Shown here: positions 3,445 through 40,533 of the stretch, piece by piece
Layout of the letters: each line of letters starts with the position of its first letter
Numbering within the stretch: position 1 is the first letter of the stretch
The notes under the pieces: generated by a model
What the model was told of the DNA's origin: nothing
Database searches by the model: none
The model's input: the letters and a program-made list of their open reading frames with translations, nothing else
NCBI GenBank assembly: GCA_025057955.1
Contig: JANXER010000002.1
Location: forward strand, 5,391 to 69,390
DNA: 64,000 nt
Direction of reading: 5' to 3'
Source: Candidatus Methanomethylicaceae archaeon
GTDB lineage: Archaea > Thermoproteota > Methanomethylicia > Methanomethylicales > Methanomethylicaceae
Program-made: the position numbers and the translations under genes

Positions 3445-4343
3445 TATTTACACTTATATTGGCTGAGAGGAGAACCGCAATAAGGACAACCATTTTCTGC
3501 CCTAGGAGGAGGCCCAAACATTTCTTTGAATAGTTTATAAAAGTAAATTTGTTCTTTACTCCAAAATTTCACTCCATCCTTAAGAGCTTCCTTTTCTATT
3601 TTTTCAGCTTCCTCTCCAAGCATTTTCAGAAATATTTGTGTTATAATTGAGCTTCCACTTCCCATTTCAATGGGCTCCTTATTTCTCCATGCTATCTCCG
3701 GAAAACCCATGGCATCAAGTAATTTTCTCAAAATCCACTTTCCATATGGTCGCTTTACTTTCCACTCGTAAGGCAAACTTCTTGCAAAATTAATTATTTC
3801 CTCTCTTAAGAAGGGGTGATAAACTTCTATTCCCAATTCCCTTCCAATTAGAGAGGAGGAGAAAAACCATTGTCCATAAAATTCATTGATGTATTTCTCT
3901 AGTTGATGCTCCTCCATTCTAACCATGAAATCATAGCCAGCAAAGAGTTCATCTCCCCCATCTCCAGTCATTACTTTTCTTATTCCCATCTCCTTACATT
4001 TTTTCAATGCAATGTAAAGAGTTATATCATTTCTTATTTCCACATGATCAAAAGTTCTAAATGTTCTAACTATTTCCCTTGAAGCATCTATAGCTTCCTC
4101 TATGTCATATCTTACAACTACACATGGCACACCAAGTTTTTTAGAAAGTATGAAGGAGTATTTTTCATCATTGCCAGTATTAAAAATTGCAGTAACATAT
4201 ATCACTGGTCTAATTTTTGATGTAAGTATGGCAATTAAACTACTATCAATGCCTCCAGAGAATAAAATAGCCTCAGCTTGAAAGGATTTTATAGAGTTCA
4301 TTAAAAGCTCCATTAAAATGGATTCATAGCTCATTTCAAACAC
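3417..4343 (-). CDS. Asparagine-synthetase-like PP-loop domain protein (no glutaminase domain) with C-terminal CxxC...CxxC zinc ribbon
   Basis: SGGIDSS PP-loop. The central region resembles the AsnB C-terminal domain. C-terminus CPYCGSPLSQYKCKYCG. Confidence 0.55.
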   Translation of the reverse strand: MFEMSYESILMELLMNSIKSFQAEAILFSGGIDSSLIAILTSKIRPVIYVTAIFNTGNDEKYSFILSKKLGVPCVVVRYDIEEAIDASREIVRTFRTFDHVEIRNDITLYIALKKCKEMGIRKVMTGDGGDELFAGYDFMVRMEEHQLEKYINEFYGQWFFSSSLIGRELGIEVYHPFLREEIINFARSLPYEWKVKRPYGKWILRKLLDAMGFPEIAWRNKEPIEMGSGSSIITQIFLKMLGEEAEKIEKEALKDGVKFWSKEQIYFYKLFKEMFGPPPRAENGCPYCGSPLSQYKCKYCGYVRRYY

Positions 4344-5134
4344 ATCACTACTTCATTTTTCAATTTTTTAGTCTTTGGAATTATAATAGGGCCATCTCCC
4401 TCCCACTTTACAATAGCCTCTATGCCATAAACTTCTCTCAAAAGATCTTCATTAATTACATCCCTTGGTCTACCATAAGCTATAATTTTTCCCCTATTTA
4501 GAACAAGAATTTTATCACAATAACTACAAGCCAATTCTATTTCATGAATTGAAATTATAACGGTTTTTCCAAGCTGTGTTAATGCCTTCAATATATCCAT
4601 GACTTCGATCTTATGTTTTAAGTCTAAATAAGCCACTGGTTCATCTAGTAAGATGATATCTGTTTTTTGTGCCAGAGATTTTGCTATTAAAATTTTTCTT
4701 TGTTCTCCGCTACTTAATGTATCAAAATCTCTATTAGAAAGATGATAAATCCCCATCAGATTTAGAATTTCCTCAACAAGCTTAATATCTTCATCTCTTT
4801 CCCACCATAAGCTACAGGCTCTATTTCTACATCCCATAAGCACAACTTCATAGCTCTTCATACTAAAGCCATTAGGCCAATTTGGCAACATTGAAGATAC
4901 AATCTTCGCATATTCTTCGTTAGTGTATTCTTTTGAGGATCTTCCTAATACTATTATAGCGCCCTCTGGATCTATACTTCTTGCAATACATTTCAAAAGT
5001 GTAGTCTTTCCTGAGCCATTTGGTCCTATTATACCAAGCATTTCCCCCTTTTTTACAACAAATTCTATATCATTCAATATTGTAGAGGAGGCAAAGCAAA
5101 CTCTTATGCCATTTACTATTATACTAAATGTGAT
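4331..5134 (-). CDS. ABC transporter ATP-binding protein, BtuD/FecE (cobalamin/siderophore) type
   Basis: Walker A GPNGSGKTT, LSGGE signature, Walker B ILLDEP. The ORF-track TTG start at 5077 leaves only 12 aa before the Walker A segment. The conserved N-terminal strand (..ITFSIIVNGIRVCFASSTI) continues in frame up to a stop at 5150-5152 with no ATG/GTG/TTG, so the 5' boundary is uncertain. Confidence 0.75.
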   Translation of the reverse strand: MTFSIIVNGIRVCFASSTILNDIEFVVKKGEMLGIIGPNGSGKTTLLKCIARSIDPEGAIIVLGRSSKEYTNEEYAKIVSSMLPNWPNGFSMKSYEVVLMGCRNRACSLWWERDEDIKLVEEILNLMGIYHLSNRDFDTLSSGEQRKILIAKSLAQKTDIILLDEPVAYLDLKHKIEVMDILKALTQLGKTVIISIHEIELACSYCDKILVLNRGKIIAYGRPRDVINEDLLREVYGIEAIVKWEGDGPIIIPKTKKLKNEVVMCLK

Positions 5135-6134
5135 ATCTCTCCCCCCTCCTCAATAATAGATATATGAAAAAAGGAGCGCCCATCATTGAAGTTATAACCC
5201 CCACAGGAATTTCACCTATAGGATTGAATGGACTTTTAACTATATTATCAGATACTAACAATAAGAAGGCGCCAGTAAGTCCAGCTAGTGGTAAAACAAA
5301 CCTATTATCTGAGGAGACTATCAATCTAACCATGTGTGGAGCCACAAGCCCTATGAAGCCAATTATTCCACTGAAGGCCACACATGTTGAAACAGATAAA
5401 CTTGAAACCAATAACATTAAGTTCCACAATCTCTTAGCATTAATCCCAAGCTGAGAGGCATGTTCCTCTCCAAGCAAGAGAATATTGAGATCTCTTGCAT
5501 TTATTAGTAGAAAAATAAATGAAGGAATTACTATGGGAAGGATTACTTGAAATTTATTCCAATTTGATGTAGAGAAGGATCCATATATCCAATAAAGTAT
5601 GCCATGAGCTCTTTCGGCAGCAATCACTAAAATAAACATTAATACAGCACTAAATATCGTGCCTACAGCTATTCCAGCAAGTATGAAGCCTATAGGACCC
5701 GCTCTGGATTTTCTAGCCAAAAACATAGTCAATAAAATTGAAGATAATCCTCCAGCAAAGGCAAAGAATGGAATCATAAAAATATTTAATGGTGCAATAA
5801 ATGCTATTGCAGCACCAAGAGCAGCACCAGAAGACATGCCAGTAATATATGGATCGGCTAATGGATTTCTTGTCAAAGATTGAATCACCCCTCCAGCCAT
5901 GCCTAGGGAGAATCCAGTAACAATTGCTAAGAGAGCCCTGGGAACTCTATAATTATTAACAATTATGCTTCCAGCATCATTGCTTGGACTTATTAGAGCA
6001 TTTATAACTTCAATAGGGGAAAGAGGATAAGCCCCTATCATTAATGAGGATAGAAAAGCAGTAAATAAGAGAATAAATAAAAAAGAAATATAGACTATTA
6101 GGCGAATTTTTCTTCGCTTGATAACCCCCAGCAT
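5124..6134 (-). CDS. ABC transporter permease, FecCD/BtuC family
   Basis: 336 aa polytopic protein with typical FecCD features. Operonic with the ATPase and the substrate-binding protein. Confidence 0.8.
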   Translation of the reverse strand: MLGVIKRRKIRLIVYISFLFILLFTAFLSSLMIGAYPLSPIEVINALISPSNDAGSIIVNNYRVPRALLAIVTGFSLGMAGGVIQSLTRNPLADPYITGMSSGAALGAAIAFIAPLNIFMIPFFAFAGGLSSILLTMFLARKSRAGPIGFILAGIAVGTIFSAVLMFILVIAAERAHGILYWIYGSFSTSNWNKFQVILPIVIPSFIFLLINARDLNILLLGEEHASQLGINAKRLWNLMLLVSSLSVSTCVAFSGIIGFIGLVAPHMVRLIVSSDNRFVLPLAGLTGAFLLLVSDNIVKSPFNPIGEIPVGVITSMMGAPFFIYLLLRRGERYHI

Positions 6135-6136
6135 TA

Positions 6137-7222
6137 TTATCGCCTAATTAAGCTCTCATATTCATTGATGAAGTTTGGCATAATAACACCAAATATATTT
6201 GGATGAAGAATGCTTGCAAGTATCAAAGTTGCATCAGCAACTCTAGGGCCTGGTCTCTCCAAGGCGTTAGCTGCACTTCCATTAAGAATATAAATTCTAT
6301 TGTTCTTAATAGCATTTATTTGATCAAATCCTGGAAGTCCTTTTAAATAATTGATCAATTCATCAGGAGGTCTTGGAAGTGACATAGAACTCATTATGAG
6401 CACATCAGGATTAGCAGCTACAATTTGCTCTGGATTCACTACAATCCATCCACTTTTATCACTAAATACATTTTCTCCACTTGCAATTGAAATTAACTCA
6501 TGTAAGTAGGTTCCATTACCTGTAGCCCACATTGGATTAGGCCAGACCAAGAAGACTACTTTTTGCTTGTTTACATTAGATAGCTTAAATTGTACCTCTC
6601 TTATTGTAGATTCTATTTTACTAATAGTGGCCTCTCCTTCCTTGAATTTAGAGGTAATTTTTGCAATTAATTTTATGTTATTCAAAACATCTGAAAGACT
6701 GCGAGACTCCAATGCTACTACTGTAAGTCCAAATCCCTCTAAGGTTGAAAGGAATTTTTTCTGTAGACTTGCATCAATTAAAACAAGATCAGGTTTTAAG
6801 GCAGCAACTCTCTCAGGGCTAAGCGTGGTGACGCCACCAACAGTCTTAATTTTACCAGTATTTATAAGATCCAGTAATTCTTTAGGATAATTGGAAAATT
6901 GATCAACCCCTACAATTTTATCTGAAAGTCCAAGGGCGAAGAGCATTTCAGTTATGGAAGGCGTGCATGAGACTATTCTATTTGGCTCTGATTTTATACT
7001 CACCATCCTTTCAAGAGCATCCCTTATGAAGAGAGGATAATGAAGTTCCTGAATAGCGCCTAGTTCTTTTTTGAGTAATTTTAGTTCATTTGATACCTCA
7101 GTGAGTGAAGCATTTAGCTGTCTAAGGTTATTTATGATTGTATTATTTGTGTAAGCAATAAAAATGCTATTGGCTAGCCCAATTAATATGGCAATTATTA
7201 CAATGACAAACAATTTTTTCAT
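6137..7222 (-). CDS. Periplasmic-binding-protein-type substrate-binding protein (BtuF/FepB class) with N-terminal TM anchor and coiled-coil spacer
   Basis: N-terminal TM segment, then a Peripla_BP_2-like domain. First gene of the BtuFCD-type operon. Confidence 0.7.
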   Translation of the reverse strand: MKKLFVIVIIAILIGLANSIFIAYTNNTIINNLRQLNASLTEVSNELKLLKKELGAIQELHYPLFIRDALERMVSIKSEPNRIVSCTPSITEMLFALGLSDKIVGVDQFSNYPKELLDLINTGKIKTVGGVTTLSPERVAALKPDLVLIDASLQKKFLSTLEGFGLTVVALESRSLSDVLNNIKLIAKITSKFKEGEATISKIESTIREVQFKLSNVNKQKVVFLVWPNPMWATGNGTYLHELISIASGENVFSDKSGWIVVNPEQIVAANPDVLIMSSMSLPRPPDELINYLKGLPGFDQINAIKNNRIYILNGSAANALERPGPRVADATLILASILHPNIFGVIMPNFINEYESLIRR

Positions 7223-9086: not shown

Positions 9087-9161
9087 GGGCCCGTAGCTCA
9101 GCTCGGTCAGAGCGGCAGGCTCATAACCTGTTGGTCGAGGGTTCAAATCCCTCCGGGCCCA
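9087..9161 (+). tRNA. tRNA-Met(CAU) elongator-type, or tRNA-Ile2 (CAU to be modified); no encoded CCA
   Basis: Clean cloverleaf: acceptor GGGCCCG/CGGGCCC, anticodon loop CTCATAA, T-loop TTCAAAT, discriminator A. Confidence 0.85.
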
Positions 9162-12381: not shown

Positions 12382-13926
12382 TTAATCCTCTAAAATTCTC
12401 GGCTTTGTAAGTTCCACTCCTTCCTCTCTGCTAACTGGAATCTCAATCAAAATCGGTTCCTTTATAACTTCAAGTGCTTTACTTACATCCTCTGGATTTC
12501 TTGCAGATATGGCATTAATTCCATAGGCTTCTGCAAGTTTTAAATAATCTGGTGGATATTCATAATCCACTCCAAAAATCTTCTTATATACAATGCTTTG
12601 AACTTGTCTTATCAATCCAAGCGATTTATTGTTGAATAGACAAACAGCTATTGCTAGATTATTTTCCCTTATGGTAGATAACTCCGAAGAACTCATTTGA
12701 AAACCACCATCTCCTACAGCTACAATTACTTTTCTATTTGGAAGAGCAAATTTAGCTCCAATAGCAGCAGGAATGGAAAATCCCATGGAAGACATTCCAC
12801 CGGAGAATATTAATTGTCTTGGATGCTCAATCCTCAAAGCCTTTAGAAGCCATATAGCATGTTGGCCTATATCTAATGAAAAAATAGCATCCTTTGATTT
12901 TGCTATTGCTTTTGCGTAGGGCATAATATCATCAGTATATTTATCAACAATTCTGCTTTTAATTTTACCTAATTTTTTAATGATTAACTCTAAGAAAGCA
13001 GATACATCTCCTCTTATTTTAATATTAGAGATAGAAGAGAAGTTCCTTGGTTCTATATCTACTTGAATGATTTTGCATTTCAAATCCATTTTTCCAATAG
13101 TCATATTTGAAAGTCTACATCCTAAGACCAAAAGTAAATCACAGCTTAATAATGCTTCATTAGCCTCTTTGAAACCTCTTCTTCCCACTGGACCTAGACA
13201 GAGGGGATGAGACTCAGGCACAATGCCCCTTCCCATCATGGATGTAACCAATGGTATTTCTGTAGTTTCTATAAAACGAAGCATTAGATCAGATGCATTT
13301 GAGAATACTGCTCCTCTTCCTGCTAATATCAATGGAAATTTAGAATTGAAGATTTCTCTTAATACTAATTCAATAGATTCAGAATTGGGGATTATTTTGC
13401 TTGGAGTTGGAGAATAATTTAACATTATAGATGGTTTTTTCTGAATATCCCCGGGGATGATTATACATGATGGTCCAGGACATCCCTCTAGACAAGATAA
13501 ATAAGCTCTACATACCATATTATAGGCTTCATATGGATCATTTATTTGAGTGCAGAACTTTGTTACTTGAGAGAATATTGCAGTTAAATTAACATCTTCA
13601 ATCCATCCCTTTCCTTGTTCATATGTAGGAACTTGACTTATTATGGAGATTATTGAAGAGTTATCCTTGAAAGATGCTGCAAGACCTGCAGCTAGATTAA
13701 CAGCCCCTTGTCCTGCACTTCCAATACATAATCCAATTCTTCCAGAGGCTCTTGTGAATCCATCTGAGGCATAAGCAGCAAATTGCTCATTTCGCATTAA
13801 TATATGTTTTATTTTTGAATTGGATAAAGCCTCATATATTGGTAGTGACCACATTCCAGGCATTCCAAAAGCAATATTCAATCCAAGCCTCTCTAATGTA
13901 GAGATTATTACTTCTGCAGCGTTCAA
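12382..13926 (-). CDS. Thiamine-diphosphate-dependent enzyme of the acetolactate-synthase/pyruvate-oxidase family (short, 514 aa)
   Basis: N-terminal Pyr domain and a C-terminal PP domain with a GDGGF...N ThDP motif. No adjacent small regulatory subunit. Confidence 0.8.
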
Positions 13927-14420
13927 GGGGCACTACCCTTTATCTTCTTCTTATAATATTCTACTAATCCTCCAGAATTAAGTATTTCCTGAAGGAATTG
14001 AGGCAAGGGTTTGTATTTTAAAATTCCTCTTTTAGTTTTTATAATGCCTTCGTTTAAATTTATTTCAATTACATCACCATTATCCACAGCATTAGAAATT
14101 CCCTTACACTCTATAAGCAGTAATCCATTATTAATTCCATTTCTAAAGAATATACGAGCAAATGATTCTGCTACAATAGCACTTATTCCTGCCCACTTTA
14201 TAGCAAGAACAGCTTGCTCTCTACTTGATCCACAGCCAAAATTTTTTCCAGCAACAATTATATCTCCTGATTTAACTTTAGAGCTGAATGTTGGATCTAT
14301 CCCTTCAAGAACATGCTTTGGCCATATTGATTTATCCACAGATCGCAAGTATTTAGCAGGTATTATAACATCAGTATCAATATCATCACCAAATTTCCAA
14401 ACTCTTCCGCTTATTATCAA
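13923..14420 (-). CDS. leuD: 3-isopropylmalate/homoaconitate dehydratase small subunit (LeuD family)
   Basis: 165 aa. [21 protein letters not shown] matches the family. Confidence 0.8.
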
Positions 14421-15667
14421 TCCAAATACCTCCTTGGATCGGTTATTTTTCCCTCTATGGAAGAGGCTGCAGTTGTTTGAGGTGAAGCAAGATAAACTTT
14501 TGAAGATCTTGCGCCCATTCTTCCAATGAAATTTCTATTAGAAGTAGAAATACAAACTTCATCCTCACCAAGAACGCCCATGTGAACGCCTAAACATGGA
14601 CCACATCCAGGGACGCCAATTATCGCCCCAGAATCCATGAGGATATCTATTATTCCATCCTTCATAGCCTTTACTAATGTAGTTTTAGATGCAGGAACTA
14701 CAATTAACCTTGCACGAACTTTTCTCCCCTTTAATATTTTAGCAGCCTCCAAAAGATCTTCGTATCTTCCATTAGTACAAGATCCTAAGAATGCTTGATC
14801 TATTGGTTCTCCTTCTACCTCAGTAACTGACTTTACATTAGAGACTTTATATGGAATGGCTACTTTTGGATCTATGTATTGAGAATCTATGGATATTATC
14901 TCAGCCACACCATCATCTGTACTATAAATCTTGCCTTCTCTTCCAAGAAATTCCATGGTCTTATCATCTGGCTCTATGAAAGCCGTCTTTGCGCCCATTT
15001 CAACTGCCATATTGGCTAAAGTCATTCTTGATGATTGAGACATTTTTTTTACAGTTTCTCCAGTGAACTCTAAAACTTTATAAGTAGCACCATCTGTGCC
15101 TAGAATTCTTGCTACTTCCAATATTAAATCCTTTGAAGATACTCCTTTTTTCAAAAATCCTTTAAATTCTATCCTAATAGTCTCTGGAACTTTAATCCAT
15201 GTTTTTCCAGTTGCTAATATATAAGCCATATCCGTAGCGCCCATTCCAAGAGCCATTAAACCAAAGGCTCCAATAGTGCATGTATGTGAGTCTGCACCAC
15301 ATACTATCATACCAGGAGCAACATAGCCTTTTTCAGGAACTACTTGATGACATATGCCCTCTCCTATTTCATGAAATTTTGTAATATTCTGCTCCCTTAT
15401 GAATTTCCTCACCTTAGCTTGTAATGTAGCAGCTTGATCATTATATGGAGGAGCAGCATGATCAAATATTACAGCTATTTTTTCTGGGCTAAATACTCGA
15501 TTCACTTCCATTTCCTTAAGTACATCAATTATAAGCGGTCCAGTACCATCATGGAAGTAGGCAAAATCCACTGGTACTTCTACAAAGTCTCCTGAATAAA
15601 CTTTCCTTCCTATAGCGCTGGATATTATTTTTTCAATTGCCGTTGCCATATAAACCCCAAAAATCAT
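14417..15667 (-). CDS. leuC: 3-isopropylmalate/homoaconitate dehydratase large subunit (LeuC family aconitase)
   Basis: 416 aa. Aconitase-family Cys ligand motifs (GSCTNGR and others). Confidence 0.85.
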
Positions 15668-22234: not shown

Positions 22235-22672
22235 TCATTTGAATTTATTTTTTAAGTAGATTCTCTCCTCACAACTCTCCTTATATGGACGAATATAATT
22301 GTAATTTCTCTCAAATACTAAATTGGGATTTAATTTCTTCAAAAAATATTTACATACTGGTTCTGAGATCTCTTTGCAAACATTTCTTGTATCCAGCCCT
22401 AAGCGAATAGATAGCCAAAGTATAGGACAGGGATTTCTACATCTAGTTATCAATTCTCCATTACTAATCCTAATTACTTTCAAATTATCAATGCCAACCC
22501 TCAAAAAATCTAAATAGAAAAGTTTTAGAACTTCGTTCAAAGAATTTGCACTTTTGGGAACTATTTGCCATATAAAGGCATATGTAAAGAATATATATTT
22601 CATCAAGATTATTAAGATCTTCGCCAAAATCATACAATATTTCATTAATATTCTTACAAAAACTTTAAACAT
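22235..22672 (-). CDS. Hypothetical protein (N-terminal hydrophobic segment, several Cys)
   Basis: 145 aa with no recognisable family. Borderline protein-like. Confidence 0.3.
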   Translation of the reverse strand: MFKVFVRILMKYCMILAKILIILMKYIFFTYAFIWQIVPKSANSLNEVLKLFYLDFLRVGIDNLKVIRISNGELITRCRNPCPILWLSIRLGLDTRNVCKEISEPVCKYFLKKLNPNLVFERNYNYIRPYKESCEERIYLKNKFK

Positions 22673-22779
22673 ATCGATAGAAAATAATTTATTAGCTATG
22701 ATGTGCCATTGCAGAACTGATGAATGATGTATGACTCCAATACTGAGCTCTTTTTTAAAATATTAATTTCCATTATAAT

Positions 22780-28115: not shown

Positions 28116-28480
28116 AAACTCAATTTTATGCTGATGTAGATTTAGAATTTTATATAACTAGTAGAAGAGTTTATGCTTTCAAAGGGTGTAATTTAGAATT
28201 GAATTTTGTAAGAATGGGAATTCATTTTGGTACTTTGGAAGAGGATGGACTAAGGCTTTCCATAGAAGGGAGCTTTATAGTCGGTAAGGTTGCAAAGAAG
28301 AATATTATAGAATTGAGTGATGAAGATGCAATCAAATGGTTAAAAGGGGAGAATTTAGAAGTTAATAAAGAATTGAAAGGCTATTATATAATAAAATGGA
28401 TGGAATACTTTTTAGGATGTGGAAAGGCTTTAAATGGAAAATTAATAAATTTTGTTCCAAAGGATAGAAGGATCTCTTAA
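28037..28480 (+). CDS. RsmF-type C-terminal domain, apparently the frameshifted continuation of the NSUN gene
   Basis: Overlaps the upstream ORF by 79 nt in another frame. The conserved part begins IRELLKTQFYADV and ends GYYIIKWMEYFLGCGKALNGKLINFVP (RsmF C-terminal pattern). Confidence 0.5.
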   Translation: MLENTSTEQRHRGILHRQTEKIRELLKTQFYADVDLEFYITSRRVYAFKGCNLELNFVRMGIHFGTLEEDGLRLSIEGSFIVGKVAKKNIIELSDEDAIKWLKGENLEVNKELKGYYIIKWMEYFLGCGKALNGKLINFVPKDRRIS

Positions 28481-28515
28481 TTCATTCCGTCAAGTATTTA
28501 ACCATAAAAAATAAT

Positions 28516-29844
28516 TTGATTGATATGATTGAAAAATTTGAATGGTATGATGTTTTTGTAAAGAGGGACTATAAACCAGATTTAGAGAATGATGTAGTAG
28601 TTATATTTAAAGTAACACCATCTGAAGGTTTTAAAATTGAAGATGTAGTTGGAGCAGTAGCATCGGAGAGCAGCGTAGGCACATGGACAACATTATCCAT
28701 ATTACCCGATAGAATTTGGAAACTCATGGGGAAGGCTTATGAAATAATAAAGTTAGAAGGAAACTCTCTAATAGCAAAGATAGCTTATCCCATTGAATTA
28801 TTTGAAGAAGGAAATATGCCTGCGTTTCTTGCATCAATTGCCGGAAACATATTTGGAATGAGAAGAGTGAAAAGCTTAAGGATTGAAGATGTATACTTCC
28901 CTTATTCTTTCATGAAATTCTTCAAGGGACCATTGAAAGGAATAGATGGTGTAAGAAATATCTATAAGATATATGGAAGGCCAATTTTAGGAACTGTTCC
29001 AAAGCCTAAAGTAGGATATACTCCAGAGGAGCTTGAAAAAATATCCTATGATATTCTTTCGGGAGGAATGGATTATATTAAGGATGATGAAAATTTAGCC
29101 TCTCCTCCCTTCTGTCGTTTTGAAGAGAGAGCTAAGGGAATTATGAGAGCAATAGATAAAGCTGAGAAGGAAAGTGGAGAGAGAAAAGTTTGGCTTGCTA
29201 ATATAACAGCTGATGTAAAGGAAATGGAGAGAAGGCTTAAACTAATAGCAGATTATGGAAATCCATTTATTATGATAGATGTAGTAATAATTGGTTGGTC
29301 CTCACTTAATTATATAAGAGATCTCGCAGAAGAGTATAATCTAGGAATACATGCCCATAGGGCATTTCATGCTGCATTTACAAGGAATAGAGATCATGGA
29401 ATGTCTATGTTCGCTCTATCAAAGCTCCTCAGATTAATGGGGGTCGATCAACTTCATATTGGCACTCCTGAAGTTGGTAAATTAGAGGCGAAAACCGAAG
29501 AAGTTATAGAATATGCAAAAGTTTTAAGAGAAAGCATTTATAGGTCAAATGAAGTAAATCGCATGGAACAACCGTGGTATCATATAAAGCCAGTTTTACC
29601 AACATCCTCTGGAGGCTTGCATCCTGGAACCTTGCCTGAGGTTATTAAATCGCTTGGAGTTGATTTAGTGATTCAAGTTGGCGGTGGAGTATTAGGACAT
29701 CCAGATGGCCCTAGGGATGGAGCAGCTGCAGTTAGACAAGCAGTGGAAGCAATAACTAAGGGCATTCCTCTGAAGGATTATGCTACGCAGCATAAGGAGT
29801 TAAGAAGAGCGCTTGAAAAATGGGGAATTCTAAGAATTTCATAA
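28516..29844 (+). CDS. rbcL: Ribulose-1,5-bisphosphate carboxylase/oxygenase large subunit, archaeal form III
   Basis: 442 aa. GGMDYIKDDEN (GGxDFxKDDE), HAHRA, Gly-rich C-terminal region. Confidence 0.9.
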   Translation: MIDMIEKFEWYDVFVKRDYKPDLENDVVVIFKVTPSEGFKIEDVVGAVASESSVGTWTTLSILPDRIWKLMGKAYEIIKLEGNSLIAKIAYPIELFEEGNMPAFLASIAGNIFGMRRVKSLRIEDVYFPYSFMKFFKGPLKGIDGVRNIYKIYGRPILGTVPKPKVGYTPEELEKISYDILSGGMDYIKDDENLASPPFCRFEERAKGIMRAIDKAEKESGERKVWLANITADVKEMERRLKLIADYGNPFIMIDVVIIGWSSLNYIRDLAEEYNLGIHAHRAFHAAFTRNRDHGMSMFALSKLLRLMGVDQLHIGTPEVGKLEAKTEEVIEYAKVLRESIYRSNEVNRMEQPWYHIKPVLPTSSGGLHPGTLPEVIKSLGVDLVIQVGGGVLGHPDGPRDGAAAVRQAVEAITKGIPLKDYATQHKELRRALEKWGILRIS

Positions 29845-35507: not shown

Positions 35508-36470
35508 TTATAAACACCAAATTAATGAGGTTTCTCTTGAAGAATTAAGAATTATGGAATTGATCTCATAAAATCCCAATTAGAAGGAGATCAATTACGA
35601 AAAATTTAAAAGAAAAATTTATGATGGAATTTAAAATAATCTGTGCATTAAATTTGAAGCTTTATAAAGTGGAGTCAAAATCATTCATTTAATAATTATA
35701 AATAGTATCCACCACTATTTATAATCCACAGAGGACTCATAAGGACAAAGTATTAGTATTGTCTAAAATATTACCTAAAATATGCTAGAGGATTCTTGAA
35801 AGAGAGGATTCTTCAAGTATTGTAGAATGCTTGTAGCATTGATTTTAGAGAAAAATAGTAAAATGTTATAACTATTGGCCTATTGAGATCTATAACAATA
35901 TCATCAATATAAGAGGCAATAACATTAATATGTGAGAGTCTGATAAATAATATCATTATTAGCCCAAGGAATTTTTATTAAATAGAATTTTGATGTTTTT
36001 TTCACCATATTTCTAGCATATCCTTTATCGCGGTTAGAATGAAAAGAGTTTATGATGGTTAGAACAGTTATATCATTAGTTATATCATTATCTAAATAAT
36101 TTTATTGGATTGTTCTCAGATTATGAGTAATGGATTTATTTTATGTTTTCATGTTTGTACCATTCTAAGTTGCTATGGACAATATTGTAAAATACCTCAC
36201 CTATAATGATTCTGCTATAGTTCTACTATAGTAAGGAAGATAGGATATGGCTTCATAGTAGTAATCAATCTCTTGCCCAATAATGCGGATATCAAGCGCA
36301 TTCCAATTTAAATTAAGTAACTTTATTGAAGAGTAAAACTAAGAGCATTTAATGTGCTCTTTGTTAGAGATTTGAATTGATTGATTTAAAGATACAATGA
36401 GATTGTAAAATATTTTATTGCTTGATAATTCTGATTAGAATTTCATGAGCACTTTATAAATGATTTCTAA

Positions 36471-36547
36471 TGGTGGGCCGAGCCGGACTTGAACCGGCGA
36501 CCCCCGCCGTGTAAGGGCGGTATCCTACCGGGCTAGACCATCGGCCC
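36471..36547 (-). tRNA. tRNA-Val(UAC) with encoded CCA
   Basis: Acceptor GGGCCGA/TCGGCCC, anticodon loop CTTACAC, T-loop TTCAAGT, 3' ACCA. Confidence 0.9.
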
Positions 36548-36570
36548 AGAAGATTCTATATCTAACAAGC

Positions 36571-37083
36571 TTAAAGATTTTGCGCACCCATCAGATTTCT
36601 CTCTATTTCTTCAATTTTAATTTTAAGCGTCTCAATAATATATTCATTCTTAACATTCTCAAGTCTTTTACCACACTCTGGACATTGAAAATTTAATTCC
36701 ATAGCTTCTTCAAAAGTATATTTAACTTTGTTATGTTCAGAACATGAAAAGAAGATATTGCTCATTTCATATTCAAGGCGCTCTTTTAGTTTTAATAAGA
36801 CCTTCTTCTTCCTCAAATTTAATAAAACATTTATGGCTGTTGGATTAATCCTCCAATAATATTTATACCATCCCACATCCTTATCTCTAACTCTTCTGTA
36901 TGAAATGAATTGATTATCAAAGAGCTGATATAATACCTTTCTAAGGTTATTTAGTTTCATTCCAGTCTTTTGAATTAATTCATCATCAGATACTTCATTC
37001 TTTTCCATCAATATTTTCATAATCTTAGCGGCCTCCTCGCCTAGCAAGGCTTCAACTATATTAACTAGAGCCTCGCTGGACAT
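36571..37083 (-). CDS. tfe: Transcription factor E, alpha subunit (TFE/TFIIE-alpha)
   Basis: N-terminal winged helix plus FSCSEH...CPECG zinc ribbon. 170 aa. Confidence 0.8.
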   Translation of the reverse strand: MSSEALVNIVEALLGEEAAKIMKILMEKNEVSDDELIQKTGMKLNNLRKVLYQLFDNQFISYRRVRDKDVGWYKYYWRINPTAINVLLNLRKKKVLLKLKERLEYEMSNIFFSCSEHNKVKYTFEEAMELNFQCPECGKRLENVKNEYIIETLKIKIEEIERNLMGAQNL

Positions 37084-37089
37084 AAGTGT

Positions 37090-37614
37090 TCACCCATTTA
37101 TTTGAAGCACTTTTTTACCCTTCTCTGATGGTATAATTACTAATTTAGCATTTTGAAATTTTAAGTATTCCCAAGTTCCATTCGTTATTCTATCAAGAAA
37201 TATGGCAAGTGCAGCTACTTCGGAGTGAGGCTGATTTCCAATAGCTATATTATAATCAGATTCATAATAATACTCTATGGGTACTTTTTCCCCTCCTACA
37301 ATTATTAAAACATCCTTTTCTAAGTTAATATTACGTAAAGCTTGATTTATTGGAATGCCATACATAGTCAAATGAACTATAATAGCTCCCCTTTTCTTCC
37401 AATTCCTCATCAAAGCTAAAGGGCTTTCGATAAATTCTATCCAAAAATCCCCTCCCCAAATTTCACAAATCTTACTAATGGTTTTTAAAATTCTTTCATC
37501 CCTCACGCCAGATACATATATGCCCTCTGCACCAAAAGCTCTAGCAACTAAACAAACATGAGTAGTTATTCTCTTATCCCTTTCAGGCCTATGTCCCAGT
37601 CTTAGGACAGCAAT
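37090..37614 (-). CDS. trm56: tRNA (cytidine56-2'-O)-methyltransferase aTrm56 (SPOUT)
   Basis: Extended frame reads IAVLRLGHRPERDKRITTHVCLVARAFGAEG...GNQPHSEVAALAIFLDR. The conserved N-terminus lies upstream of the ORF-track GTG (37504) with no ATG/GTG/TTG before the in-frame stop at 37636-37638. The 5' boundary is approximate. Confidence 0.8.
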   Translation of the reverse strand: MAVLRLGHRPERDKRITTHVCLVARAFGAEGIYVSGVRDERILKTISKICEIWGGDFWIEFIESPLALMRNWKKRGAIIVHLTMYGIPINQALRNINLEKDVLIIVGGEKVPIEYYYESDYNIAIGNQPHSEVAALAIFLDRITNGTWEYLKFQNAKLVIIPSEKGKKVLQING

Positions 37615-38867
37615 TCTTCTCGTATAACAACCTCCTTATGAGAGAGAGGTTTGATAGCATTTAAATAATCTGGATGGGCGATTACTTCTATATAGGTTCC
37701 ATCATTATCATATTTAATAGAGGCTATATCGAATCTATTATTAATTAATCTTAATATAGATGATAGATCGCTAGATTTTGGTACAAATATCTTGATTTTT
37801 CTATAGTTTGGAAGTCTCAAAGAAATAGCATTGATTAATTCATTTATCCCTTCACCAGTAAGAGCTGAAATTTTTATTGGCTTAATTCCAATAGTATGAT
37901 TGACAATTTTTTCATACTCTTCCAAGCTGCTATTTGCAACATCTATTTTATTCATTACTGGTAATATGGAACCATTAAATATGCCTATGGAATTAAGTAT
38001 GGATATGGATGTATGTAATTTTCTAAGGAATTCATCTCTTGAATCTGAGGCATCTAATATTAGCAAAACTAAATCAGCTAAAGTTACCTCTTCTAAAGTT
38101 GAATAGAAGGCCTCAATTAACATTGGTGGGAGATCGTCTAAAAATCCCACAGTATCAGAGATTAATACCTTCCTTCCAGAAATTAACATTGCTCTAGTTG
38201 TTGTAGATAGAGTTGTAAATAACAAACTTCCAACCTGAAGATTCTCCTTTGTAAGACGATTGAATAGAGCAGTTTTTCCAGCAAAAGTATAACCAGTTAG
38301 AGCAATACTAAAGAGAGGATATCTGCTTCTACGATGCATGGATTTTCTTATTCTAATCTCCTCAAGCTTCTTTCTTAAATAAGATATTCTTCTCTTTATC
38401 ATGGATTCATATACATCTAAAGCATATTTTCCAAGCCCATGAAAACCAGGAAGTTCACCAAGTTTAGCTAATCTTATATTCTCTCTTATCATAGGCAGTT
38501 CATATTGAAGTTTTGCAAGTTCTATTTGATACTTTGCCTCTAAAGTTCCCGCTCTTTTTGTGAAAATTTCTAAAATTAATTGAAATCTATCTATAACTTC
38601 TATACCAAACAGCTTAGTTAAATTATATCTTTGTATTGGCTTAAGCTGATTGTAAAATATAACTTTAATGGGATTTAGTTCTTTTATTACCTTAGCAACC
38701 TCTCTAGCCTTTCCTTTACCCATACAAAAGGATGAATCAATAGGCCTATTTTGTTGAAAAGTTTTTATTACTTTATAACCGGCAGCCTCAGATAATGATA
38801 TAAGTTCATGTAATTTTGATGATTGCTTTCTATTTTTTACTTCAATAAGTACTACATTGCTATTTAT
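37602..38867 (-). CDS. hflX: GTPase HflX
   Basis: GKGK, G1-G4 GTPase motifs, HflX N-domain. The conserved N-terminal domain (..VVLIEVKN...LSEAAGYKVI..) extends upstream of the first ATG (38723) without a canonical start. Boundary approximate. Confidence 0.8.
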   Translation of the reverse strand: MNSNVVLIEVKNRKQSSKLHELISLSEAAGYKVIKTFQQNRPIDSSFCMGKGKAREVAKVIKELNPIKVIFYNQLKPIQRYNLTKLFGIEVIDRFQLILEIFTKRAGTLEAKYQIELAKLQYELPMIRENIRLAKLGELPGFHGLGKYALDVYESMIKRRISYLRKKLEEIRIRKSMHRRSRYPLFSIALTGYTFAGKTALFNRLTKENLQVGSLLFTTLSTTTRAMLISGRKVLISDTVGFLDDLPPMLIEAFYSTLEEVTLADLVLLILDASDSRDEFLRKLHTSISILNSIGIFNGSILPVMNKIDVANSSLEEYEKIVNHTIGIKPIKISALTGEGINELINAISLRLPNYRKIKIFVPKSSDLSSILRLINNRFDIASIKYDNDGTYIEVIAHPDYLNAIKPLSHKEVVIREELLS

Positions 38868-39315
38868 TTTGCTTGCCCTCCTTAACTATTGCAACATCAC
38901 CCAGGGTGAGATTGAAATTTGGTATTTTTTCCTCAATAACTTTTTCTACCTTCATCCTTAAAGAGATTTTCAATAGACGCTCAATTTTCAATAATAAATC
39001 TCGTGAAGGATACATCTCCTCACTTTCTATTCTCCTAATAACAGATTCCTTTTCCCCTAATTTTTTAGCAAATTCTTCTCTTGATATTCCAAGCTCTTCT
39101 CTCCTTTTCTTGATTATTTCACCAAAATTTTCTATAAGCTCCTCTTCTTCATCTTGAATTCTAGGAGGCTTTGGTATTTTCAAGCTTTTAACAGCTTTCT
39201 CTTTTCTTACAATTGTACCAAAACGTGAACATTTAGAACAAACTGTTAATATGGATTTATCAATCTCAATTTTTACTAGCTTAGAAATTTTTTGTCCGCA
39301 TATTTCACAATTCAT
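38860..39315 (-). CDS. Archaeal multiprotein bridging factor 1 (aMBF1): zinc ribbon plus HTH-XRE
   Basis: N-terminus CEICGQ...CSKC. Central HTH (ISREEFAKKLG). Confidence 0.8.
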   Translation of the reverse strand: MNCEICGQKISKLVKIEIDKSILTVCSKCSRFGTIVRKEKAVKSLKIPKPPRIQDEEEELIENFGEIIKKRREELGISREEFAKKLGEKESVIRRIESEEMYPSRDLLLKIERLLKISLRMKVEKVIEEKIPNFNLTLGDVAIVKEGKQNK

Positions 39316-39375
39316 AAAAGCACCTATTAATATTCTATTCTTAAGAGAAATATATGTAATTATGGGAAGGAGATT

Positions 39376-40533
39376 ATGAGCGCTGAGGATAATATACTAT
39401 TGAAGAAGCTTGAGGAGAGAATATCCACTTTGGAAAATGAAAGAAGGGAATGGCATTTTGAAAGGGATAGATTGCTTAGAGAGATACAGTTCTTAAGAGA
39501 GGAAATAGAGAGATTAATTAGTCCACCATATATTGAGGGTTATGTTACAGATATATTAGAGGATGGAAGAGCAATAGTAAAGAGCTCAACAGGTCCATCT
39601 CTTATAGTAAGTATTTCTAGGAATGTAGATATTAGTAAGCTAGTACCAGGAAAGAGGGTGGCATTAAGTCAGAGAAATTTTGCCATAGTAGAGCTTTTGC
39701 CAGACATAACCGATACTTATATAAAAGCTATGGAAGTTTTAGAAGCTCCAAAAGTAAGCTATGAAGAGATTGGAGGACTTCATGAGCAGATAAAGGAGTT
39801 AAGAGAGCTAATAGAAATACCCCTACTTAGACCAGATTTATTTGAAAAAGTAGGAATAGATCCACCAAAAGGAGTTCTTCTCTATGGTCCTCCTGGCTGT
39901 GGAAAAACGCTACTTGCAAAGGCTGTTGCTAGTCAGACTAGAGCAACTTTTATAAAAGTTGTAGCCTCTGAACTAGTTCAAAAATATATAGGAGAAGGAG
40001 CAAGACTTGTTAGAGAATTATTTCAATTTGCAAAATCAAAAGCGCCATCAATAATTTTCATTGATGAAATAGATGCCATAGGAGGAAGAAGAATCGATTT
40101 AGGTGTTAGTGGTGAGAGAGAGGTTTATAGAACAATGCTTCAATTATTAAGCGAAATGGATGGATTCAATCCAAGAGGAGATGTTAAAATTATTGGAGCA
40201 ACTAATAGAATAGATCTTCTAGATCCTGCGCTCCTTAGACCGGGGAGATTTGATAGAATCATAGAAGTTCCAGCTCCAAATATGCAAGGAAGAGAGGAAA
40301 TTTTCCGAATACATACATCTAAGATGAATTTAAAGGAGGTTAATTTAAGCGAACTTGCAAGAATTACAGAAGGAGCTACTGGAGCACAAATAAAGGCCAT
40401 ATGTACGGAGGCAGGTATGTTCGCTATTAGAGAGGGAAGAGACTATGTTGTTAGAGAAGATTTCATTAAATCAATAGATAAAATCTTGAAAAAAGGAGGA
40501 ATTAAAATTGTACAAAGTGGAACCTATTTATGA
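39376..40533 (+). CDS. pan: Proteasome-activating nucleotidase PAN (AAA+ ATPase)
   Basis: Coiled-coil N-terminus, Walker A GPPGCGKT, second region of homology. Confidence 0.9.
   Translation: MSAEDNILLKKLEERISTLENERREWHFERDRLLREIQFLREEIERLISPPYIEGYVTDILEDGRAIVKSSTGPSLIVSISRNVDISKLVPGKRVALSQRNFAIVELLPDITDTYIKAMEVLEAPKVSYEEIGGLHEQIKELRELIEIPLLRPDLFEKVGIDPPKGVLLYGPPGCGKTLLAKAVASQTRATFIKVVASELVQKYIGEGARLVRELFQFAKSKAPSIIFIDEIDAIGGRRIDLGVSGEREVYRTMLQLLSEMDGFNPRGDVKIIGATNRIDLLDPALLRPGRFDRIIEVPAPNMQGREEIFRIHTSKMNLKEVNLSELARITEGATGAQIKAICTEAGMFAIREGRDYVVREDFIKSIDKILKKGGIKIVQSGTYL

Follow-up and report, generated by a model that had tools for sequence, protein, structure and literature searches.

We analyzed a 64,000-nucleotide stretch of DNA (the window; contig JANXER010000002.1, GC content of approximately 33% (33.6%)) from a metagenome-assembled genome (MAG) of the uncultured, methanogen-related Candidatus Methanomethylicaceae, in which two adjacent conserved housekeeping genes, hflX and trm56, carry no ATG, GTG, or TTG at their expected starts and are probably translated from near-cognate codons. 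The window was 99.99% identical over 21 kb to a contig of the NCBI MAG Candidatus Methanomethyliaceae archaeon (GCA_033582615.1). Both genes belong to a tightly packed cluster on the minus strand, mbf1-hflX-trm56-tfe, with the proteasome ATPase gene pan lying divergently upstream, and this order was common to the window and all the relatives fetched. The outer genes, mbf1 (38860-39315; zinc ribbon and HTH_3, identified with the help of synteny) and tfe (36571-37083; TFIIE alpha homologue), begin at canonical ATG codons. The proposed coding sequence (CDS) of hflX extends from an ATA to a TAA (37602-38867, 421 codons), and that of trm56 starts at an ATT (37090-37614, 174 codons) or, alternatively, at an ACG at 37623. 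The genes pan, hflX, tgt, tfb, and tfe were described as the conserved crenarchaeal neighborhood of mbf1 (Marrero Coto et al. 2011, PMC3062615); in the available part of that paper the gene context is as here, and start codons are not mentioned.

The identities of both products were well supported. HflX showed the domain order GTP-bdg_N, GTP-bdg_M, and MMR_HSR1 (Pfam matches at residues 23-108, 111-188, and 194-290) and matched the structures 2qtf (E = 8.7e-56) and 5ady (E = 9.6e-47). The trm56 product aTrm56, the SPOUT-type tRNA Cm56 2'-O-methyltransferase, was matched by Pfam Trm56 (PF01994, E = 1.5e-45) and by 2yy8 (PH0461, E = 1.9e-51), with query residues 8-181 aligned on chain residues 2-176. 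Its N-terminal motif LRLGHRxxRDKR was present in frame as IAVLRLGHRPERDKR at 37614-37570, upstream of the first GTG. In four MAGs of a sister species (L001-L004, at approximately 4270-4290), the motif reads LRLNHR, as against the near-invariant LRLGHR elsewhere.

Direct reading of the minus strand confirmed that the hflX frame is open, with no canonical start, for 54 codons between the in-frame TAG at 38888-38886 and the first ATG at 38723-38721. After the TAG, the frame reads TTA AGG AGG GCA AGC AAA ATA AAT AGC AAT GTA GTA CTT ATT. The Shine-Dalgarno (SD)-like AGGAGG at 38877-38882 lies within the last codons of mbf1 and is conserved in the clade of related species, and the ATA at 38865-38867 follows it after 9 nt, overlapping the end of mbf1 by 8 nt. 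These positions had been given in the preliminary description of the sequence and were found to be correct. The conserved part of the protein begins well upstream of the first ATG: Pfam GTP-bdg_N begins at codon 23 of the open frame, and residue 14 of the Sulfolobus solfataricus HflX (2qtf) was aligned to codon 26.

The arrangement of AGGAGG, 9 nt, and ATA or ATT precedes hflX in seven of seven clade species, the codon being ATA in the window, L003, L005, and L170 and ATT in L087, L171, and L088; L088 has an extra ATG three codons past the conserved ATT. A TTG in L003 and a GTG in L005 are the Leu and Val codons of strand beta1, and they look incidental because these codons vary synonymously among species. 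Initiation at the ATA would place four residues ahead of beta1, and orthologues that start with ATG (e.g., MQEGVFLIEV) have four to six. NCBI instead annotates the start at an ATT at 38844-38846 (P0001, 414 amino acids, MEVKN). This ATT is the codon of Ile14; it has no SD motif, it varies among ATT, ATA, and ATC in relatives as an ordinary Ile codon, and a start there would remove half of beta1. The ATA at 38867-38865 is thus the most likely start of hflX as judged from sequence comparison.

Just inside the N-terminal codons of hflX, an out-of-frame ATG is immediately followed by a stop in the window (38857-38852, minus strand) and L003 (ATG TAG) and in L170 (ATG TAA), and at the corresponding site a short out-of-frame open reading frame (ORF) that opens with ATG and ends in TAA occurs in L087 and L171. 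These ATG-stop pairs may be a chance product of Asp or Asn codons followed by Val or Gly codons.

The trm56 frame, also read directly, is open for 43 codons without a canonical start from the in-frame TAA at 37638-37636 to the GTG at 37506-37504, as previously described. The codons after the TAA are GGA GGT TGT TAT ACG AGA AGA ATT GCT GTC CTA AGA CTG GGA CAT. An SD-like GGAGG at 37631-37635 (GGAGGT at 37635-37630) lies within the last codons of hflX. Two candidate starts follow it: an ACG at 37621-37623, 7 nt after GGAGG, and the previously noted ATT at 37612-37614, which is 16 nt after GGAGG and has a 13-nt overlap with the hflX end. In the alignment with PH0461 (2yy8), the Ile at this ATT falls on residue 2. 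GGAGG, 7 nt, and ACG precede trm56 in eight of eight clade species, and the ATT three codons past the ACG was present in six of the eight (CCC in L087 and ATA in L088). The ACG therefore appears to be an equally good candidate; both codons lie among those shared with the tail of hflX, and the sequence favors neither.

Some relatives have a canonical codon slightly farther downstream. In L005, L169, and L171, the Leu codon of VLRLGHR is a TTG that overlaps the TGA stop of hflX as TTGA, and L088 has a GTG. The window, L003, L170, and L087 have a TAA as the hflX stop, so that the overlap reads CTAA or TTAA. The change from TTGA to TTAA is a single G-to-A substitution, which has been tolerated several times within the clade, and this repeated tolerance argues for a working trm56 start farther upstream in the whole clade. 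The TTG is thus probably not the sole start in L005, L169, and L171. At the same overlap, all three reading frames are open at 37604-37635 on the minus strand, and HflX's C-terminal tail, (V/I)-R-E-(E/G), is kept among relatives, possibly only through the nucleotides shared with the trm56 N-terminus.

The start-less stretches were compared with those of four related species, in their own frame and in the two shifted frames, for the proportions of synonymous (pS) and nonsynonymous (pN) differences. For the 36 codons of trm56 upstream of the GTG, pS was 0.56-0.79 vs a pN of 0.05-0.12, and for the 44 codons of hflX upstream of the ATG, pS was 0.50-0.95 vs a pN of 0.14-0.30; the two shifted frames showed no such contrast in the same four-species comparison. 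On this sequence evidence, both stretches are coding and under strong purifying selection. The earlier claim that the conserved N-termini lie upstream of the canonical starts was borne out, as the orthologue alignments (2yy8, 2qtf, and Pfam) begin inside the start-less stretches.

The start-less state was also found in independent genomes. L086, assembled separately from the same species, showed two mismatches in 21,245 bases and identical start regions. All four sister-species MAGs (L001-L004; HflX 78% identical) lack a canonical trm56 start, L087 and L170 lack one for both hflX and trm56, and L171 lacks one for hflX. Being common to species that are near saturation at synonymous sites, the start-less state is, by these comparisons, real and old.

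A third gene of the same kind was found elsewhere in the window. We surveyed the start-less open length over the window ORFs (the window is tiled by approximately 70 stop-to-stop ORFs with 80 or more codons). It was mostly 0-16 codons, and the values of trm56 (43) and hflX (54) were the largest among real genes. The third case is an ABC transporter ATPase (FhuC-like; 4331-5134, minus strand), with a proposed start at the ATC at 5134-5132. Its frame (5149-4331) is open from a TGA at 5152-5150, and the first TTG, at 5077, already corresponds to position 1 of Pfam ABC_tran, with residue 9 of FhuC aligned to codon 5 of the open frame. GGAGG precedes the ATC by 10 nt, and the ATC falls exactly on the initiator Met in orthologues (such as MVCSIVV and MACSIVV); the gene model of a 90%-identical relative is likewise cut short. 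SD-led canonical starts in the window lie 5-10 nt after GGAGG, a range that includes the hflX ATA (9 nt) and the ABC ATC (10 nt). The ABC ATPase gene overlaps the upstream permease-side ORF (5124-6143) by 11 nt. Approximately three of 70 window ORFs thus appear to start at ATA, ATT, or ATC; all are operon-internal, overlap the upstream gene (by 8 nt for mbf1/hflX, 13 nt for hflX/trm56, and 11 nt for the ABC ATPase), and have GGAGG upstream.

Three further candidates proved to be normal. The LeuD-like ORF (13923-14534) has 38 start-less codons, with residue 1 of 2pkp aligned at its first TTG; SHMT (26 start-less codons) and MBF1 (27) have their starts in place. The ORF at 22235-22762 (minus strand), which has no match in Pfam, runs for 30 start-less codons up to its first ATG; it could represent another non-canonical start or merely open non-coding sequence. 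Elsewhere in the window, a RuBisCO large-subunit homologue was found at 28468-29844 (plus strand; Pfam RuBisCO_large_N and RuBisCO_large).

The distribution of start-less genes was surveyed across archaea. The background comprised 80 loci, the best-listed matches of an aTrm56 scan of metagenome contigs, with one close relative among them (L089). For hflX, a distinct locus was counted as start-less when codons -30 to +4 around beta1 held no ATG, GTG, or TTG. Among the matches listed, 13 of 32 distinct archaeal loci lacked a canonical hflX start, compared with none of 35 for mbf1 and none of 48 for tfe on the same contigs; for trm56, the matches listed gave eight of 93 loci, representing four species, one of them outside the clade. 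The 13 start-less hflX loci include Bathyarchaeia (L131-L133, L150, L151, L172, and L173) and two other lineages (L130 and L168), and the start-less state extends to unrelated lineages with a GC content of 40-44%. At start-less hflX loci beyond the clade that lie downstream of mbf1, an ATA or ATT occurs within the AIIV strand. A second scan of genome contigs with an HflX alignment listed mostly bacteria and distant archaea, with none from the clade among the matches listed, and was left unused. A literature search found no description of non-canonical starts in archaeal hflX or trm56.

Database annotation of these genes is uneven. In two Bathyarchaeia MAGs, NCBI annotates an ATA as the hflX start: it overlaps the mbf1 TAG as ATAG in L172 and lies 4 nt after the mbf1 TAA in L173. 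The NCBI start of trm56 is an ATT in L003, and in a Sulfolobaceae MAG (L094, at approximately 2470) trm56 follows TAA ATT ATC GGA with no canonical start, where the NCBI model P0198 begins at the ATC. The annotation pipeline thus already accepts such starts case by case, on the basis of homology. In the window, the expectation that gene callers would truncate both proteins held for trm56, which is cut to 138 amino acids from the GTG at 37504-37506 (P0123), and failed for hflX, for which NCBI uses the internal ATT (P0001). Gene models of relatives are also short, with 382, 393, and 400 amino acids for HflX and 138, 142, and 155 amino acids for aTrm56.

The start-less codons of hflX and trm56 are under selection and are preceded by a conserved layout of an SD motif plus ATH (ATA, ATT, or ATC), from which we infer near-cognate starts. 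The explanation we prefer, with a probability of roughly 70%, is initiation at AUA, AUU, or AUC that is guided by the SD motif or coupled to termination. Both genes would be intact and expressed from one polycistronic mbf1-hflX-trm56-tfe message, ATG, GTG, and TTG having been lost at both starts. Translation of hflX would begin at the ATA at 38867-38865, and that of trm56 either at the ATT at 37614-37612 or three codons farther upstream, at the ACG. GGAGG, lying within the final codons of the gene before, would place the ribosome at the near-cognate codon, and, as the proposed starts lie 8-13 nt before the upstream stop, terminating ribosomes may be handed over directly (termination-reinitiation). 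The codon actually used, its reading by Met-tRNAi, and the shares of de novo and coupled initiation are what we infer from this arrangement. A likely consequence is low expression that is tied to that of the upstream gene.

Several points weigh against near-cognate initiation. In E. coli reporter assays, near-cognate codons initiate at approximately 0.1-1% of the efficiency of AUG, and very little protein would be made if coupling in archaea did not make the choice of codon less strict. The conservation of the SD motif and of ATA or ATT at hflX is confounded by the overlapping coding frame of mbf1, as is that of the SD motif and of ACG or ATT at trm56 by the overlapping codons of hflX. Because HflX strand beta1 is Ile-rich, its composition alone would lead one to expect an ATH codon close to the N-terminus. 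The start site of trm56 is not fixed by the sequence: the ATT, at 16 nt from GGAGG, is outside the 5-10 nt range of canonical starts in the window, and L087 has CCC in its place. The original proposal of AUA and AUU initiation is nevertheless supported over sequence error: the hflX layout in all seven clade species and the ABC ATC lying on the ATG of orthologues speak for it. Its detail is weaker for trm56, given the distance of the ATT from GGAGG and the competing ACG.

Among the alternatives, a lineage-wide change in the start-codon rule survives best, although we consider it unlikely. ATH codons would then serve routinely as starts genome-wide, for example because the initiator tRNA is altered or aIF1 proofreads less strictly; the use of ATA, ATT, or ATC by three of approximately 70 window ORFs is in line with this, as is the AT-rich genome (33.6% GC). 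However, the other window ORFs that were checked have canonical starts in place, and the start-less hflX genes of unrelated lineages occur at 40-44% GC. The sole tRNA with a CAT anticodon in the window (9087-9161, plus strand) has G1:C72 and is thus not an initiator but an elongator Met or tRNA-Ile2 type, hence uninformative. Such a rule change is compatible with near-cognate initiation at hflX and trm56 and not opposed to it.

It is highly improbable that the functional proteins are truncated ones, with HflX starting from the ATG at 38723 and aTrm56 from the GTG at 37506. Standard gene callers give such models (P0123, P0005, P0011, P0023, P0157, and P0172), but purifying selection acts on the 36-44 codons that would be missing, and does so solely in their own frame. 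aTrm56 would lose the LRLGHRPERDKR motif and its first strand and helix, which are aligned with 2yy8, and HflX would lose approximately one-third of the GTP-bdg_N domain; moreover, no SD motif lies ahead of the internal ATG or GTG.

We assign an equally small chance to programmed frameshifting, which would yield MBF1-HflX or HflX-aTrm56 fusions or would lead from a third-frame start into trm56 by a +1 shift. It draws on the three open frames across 37604-37635, on an SD-plus-stop layout that resembles prfB, and on a canonical third-frame start after the SD motif in the window (TTG at 37630-37628, MLYEK), L003 (GTG), and L088 (ATG). This third-frame start is missing in three of eight species (L005, L087, and L169), where the route from the TTG (MLYEK then IAVLRLGHR) with one frameshift into trm56 consequently fails. 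No conserved slippery site or heptamer was found, and an Rfam scan of 36400-39500 returned only a tRNA-Val and no frameshift element. Opposite shifts would be needed, +1 from mbf1 to hflX and -1 from hflX to trm56. A +1 slip at AAA TAG that would fuse MBF1 to HflX was likewise rejected: it has no conserved site, and the frame relation of mbf1 and hflX is -1 in L172 and +1 in the others.

Sequencing or assembly errors hiding a true ATG, GTG, or TTG, which the preliminary description had left as an option, and decaying pseudogenes can be dismissed: the source is a MAG and ATG to ATA needs one base change, but the second assembly, the four sister-species MAGs, and at least three further species share the start-less state, which excludes sequence error, and the remainder of both frames is intact and under strong purifying selection together with the start-less part.

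Near-cognate initiation is rare but already known, and hflX, trm56, and the ABC ATPase add candidate cases. Bacterial genes with an AUU start include infC (encoding IF3) and pcnB of E. coli; the AUU of infC is experimentally proven and serves autoregulation via IF3 proofreading. The genes described here resemble infC and pcnB in being conserved housekeeping or essential genes without AUG, GUG, or UUG, in having an Ile-type near-cognate codon behind an SD motif, and in their evolutionary persistence. infC also encodes a translation factor, and HflX is ribosome-associated. Of the proven cases, the AUU start of infC is the closest analogue. It differs in that its AUU is proven and autoregulatory, whereas the hflX and trm56 starts are putative; IF3 acts there, compared with aIF1, aIF1A, and aIF2 in archaea, and at hflX some species have ATA and others ATT.

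Coupled translation at overlapping gene pairs was shown experimentally in Haloferax volcanii and E. coli, and in most of the prokaryote groups covered by that work such pairs usually carry an SD motif within the upstream gene (Huber et al. 2019, PMC6728339). Those pairs are similarly co-directed, with the downstream start just before the upstream stop and the upstream gene holding the SD motif in its 3' end. Their starts are ATG, GTG, or TTG and their overlaps 4 or 1 nt, whereas the overlaps here are 8, 13, and 11 nt, the codons are near-cognate, and coupling is putative. Analogues of the ATGA overlap are the ATAG in L172 and the ATTAA in L087, L088, and L171. Ribosome profiling of H. volcanii placed approximately 30% of putative alternative initiation sites at near-cognate codons (Gelsinger et al. 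2020, PMC7261190), indicating that archaeal ribosomes can initiate at such codons; however, those were alternative or novel sites, which were excluded from further analysis there, and not the sole starts of conserved genes.

A stronger proposition, which we regard as doubtful, is that selection has made the near-cognate hflX start a regulatory device across TACK archaea, as opposed to tolerated decay. The ribosome-associated GTPase HflX would then be made only via low-fidelity or termination-coupled initiation behind mbf1, the product of which also binds the ribosome. The frequency of start-less hflX (13 of 32 loci), compared with mbf1 (0 of 35) and tfe (0 of 48), among the matches listed, supports this proposition without proving it. 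If it were true, HflX output would report initiation fidelity or MBF1 translation, in the way of an archaeal counterpart to the AUU circuit of infC.

For annotation, the consequence is that standard callers remove 36-54 conserved residues from such proteins; the truncated models pollute databases and can make intact genes look damaged. For the biology of these archaea, hflX, trm56, and the ABC ATPase gene are candidates for conserved genes whose only start is AUA, AUU, or AUC, naturally and stably over evolutionary time, all at operon-internal overlaps, and thereby bear on how strictly archaea check the start codon in coupled translation. The canonical start has been lost repeatedly and specifically in hflX, in Methanomethylicia, Bathyarchaeia, and other lineages, which may point to selection favoring expression that is weak or coupled.

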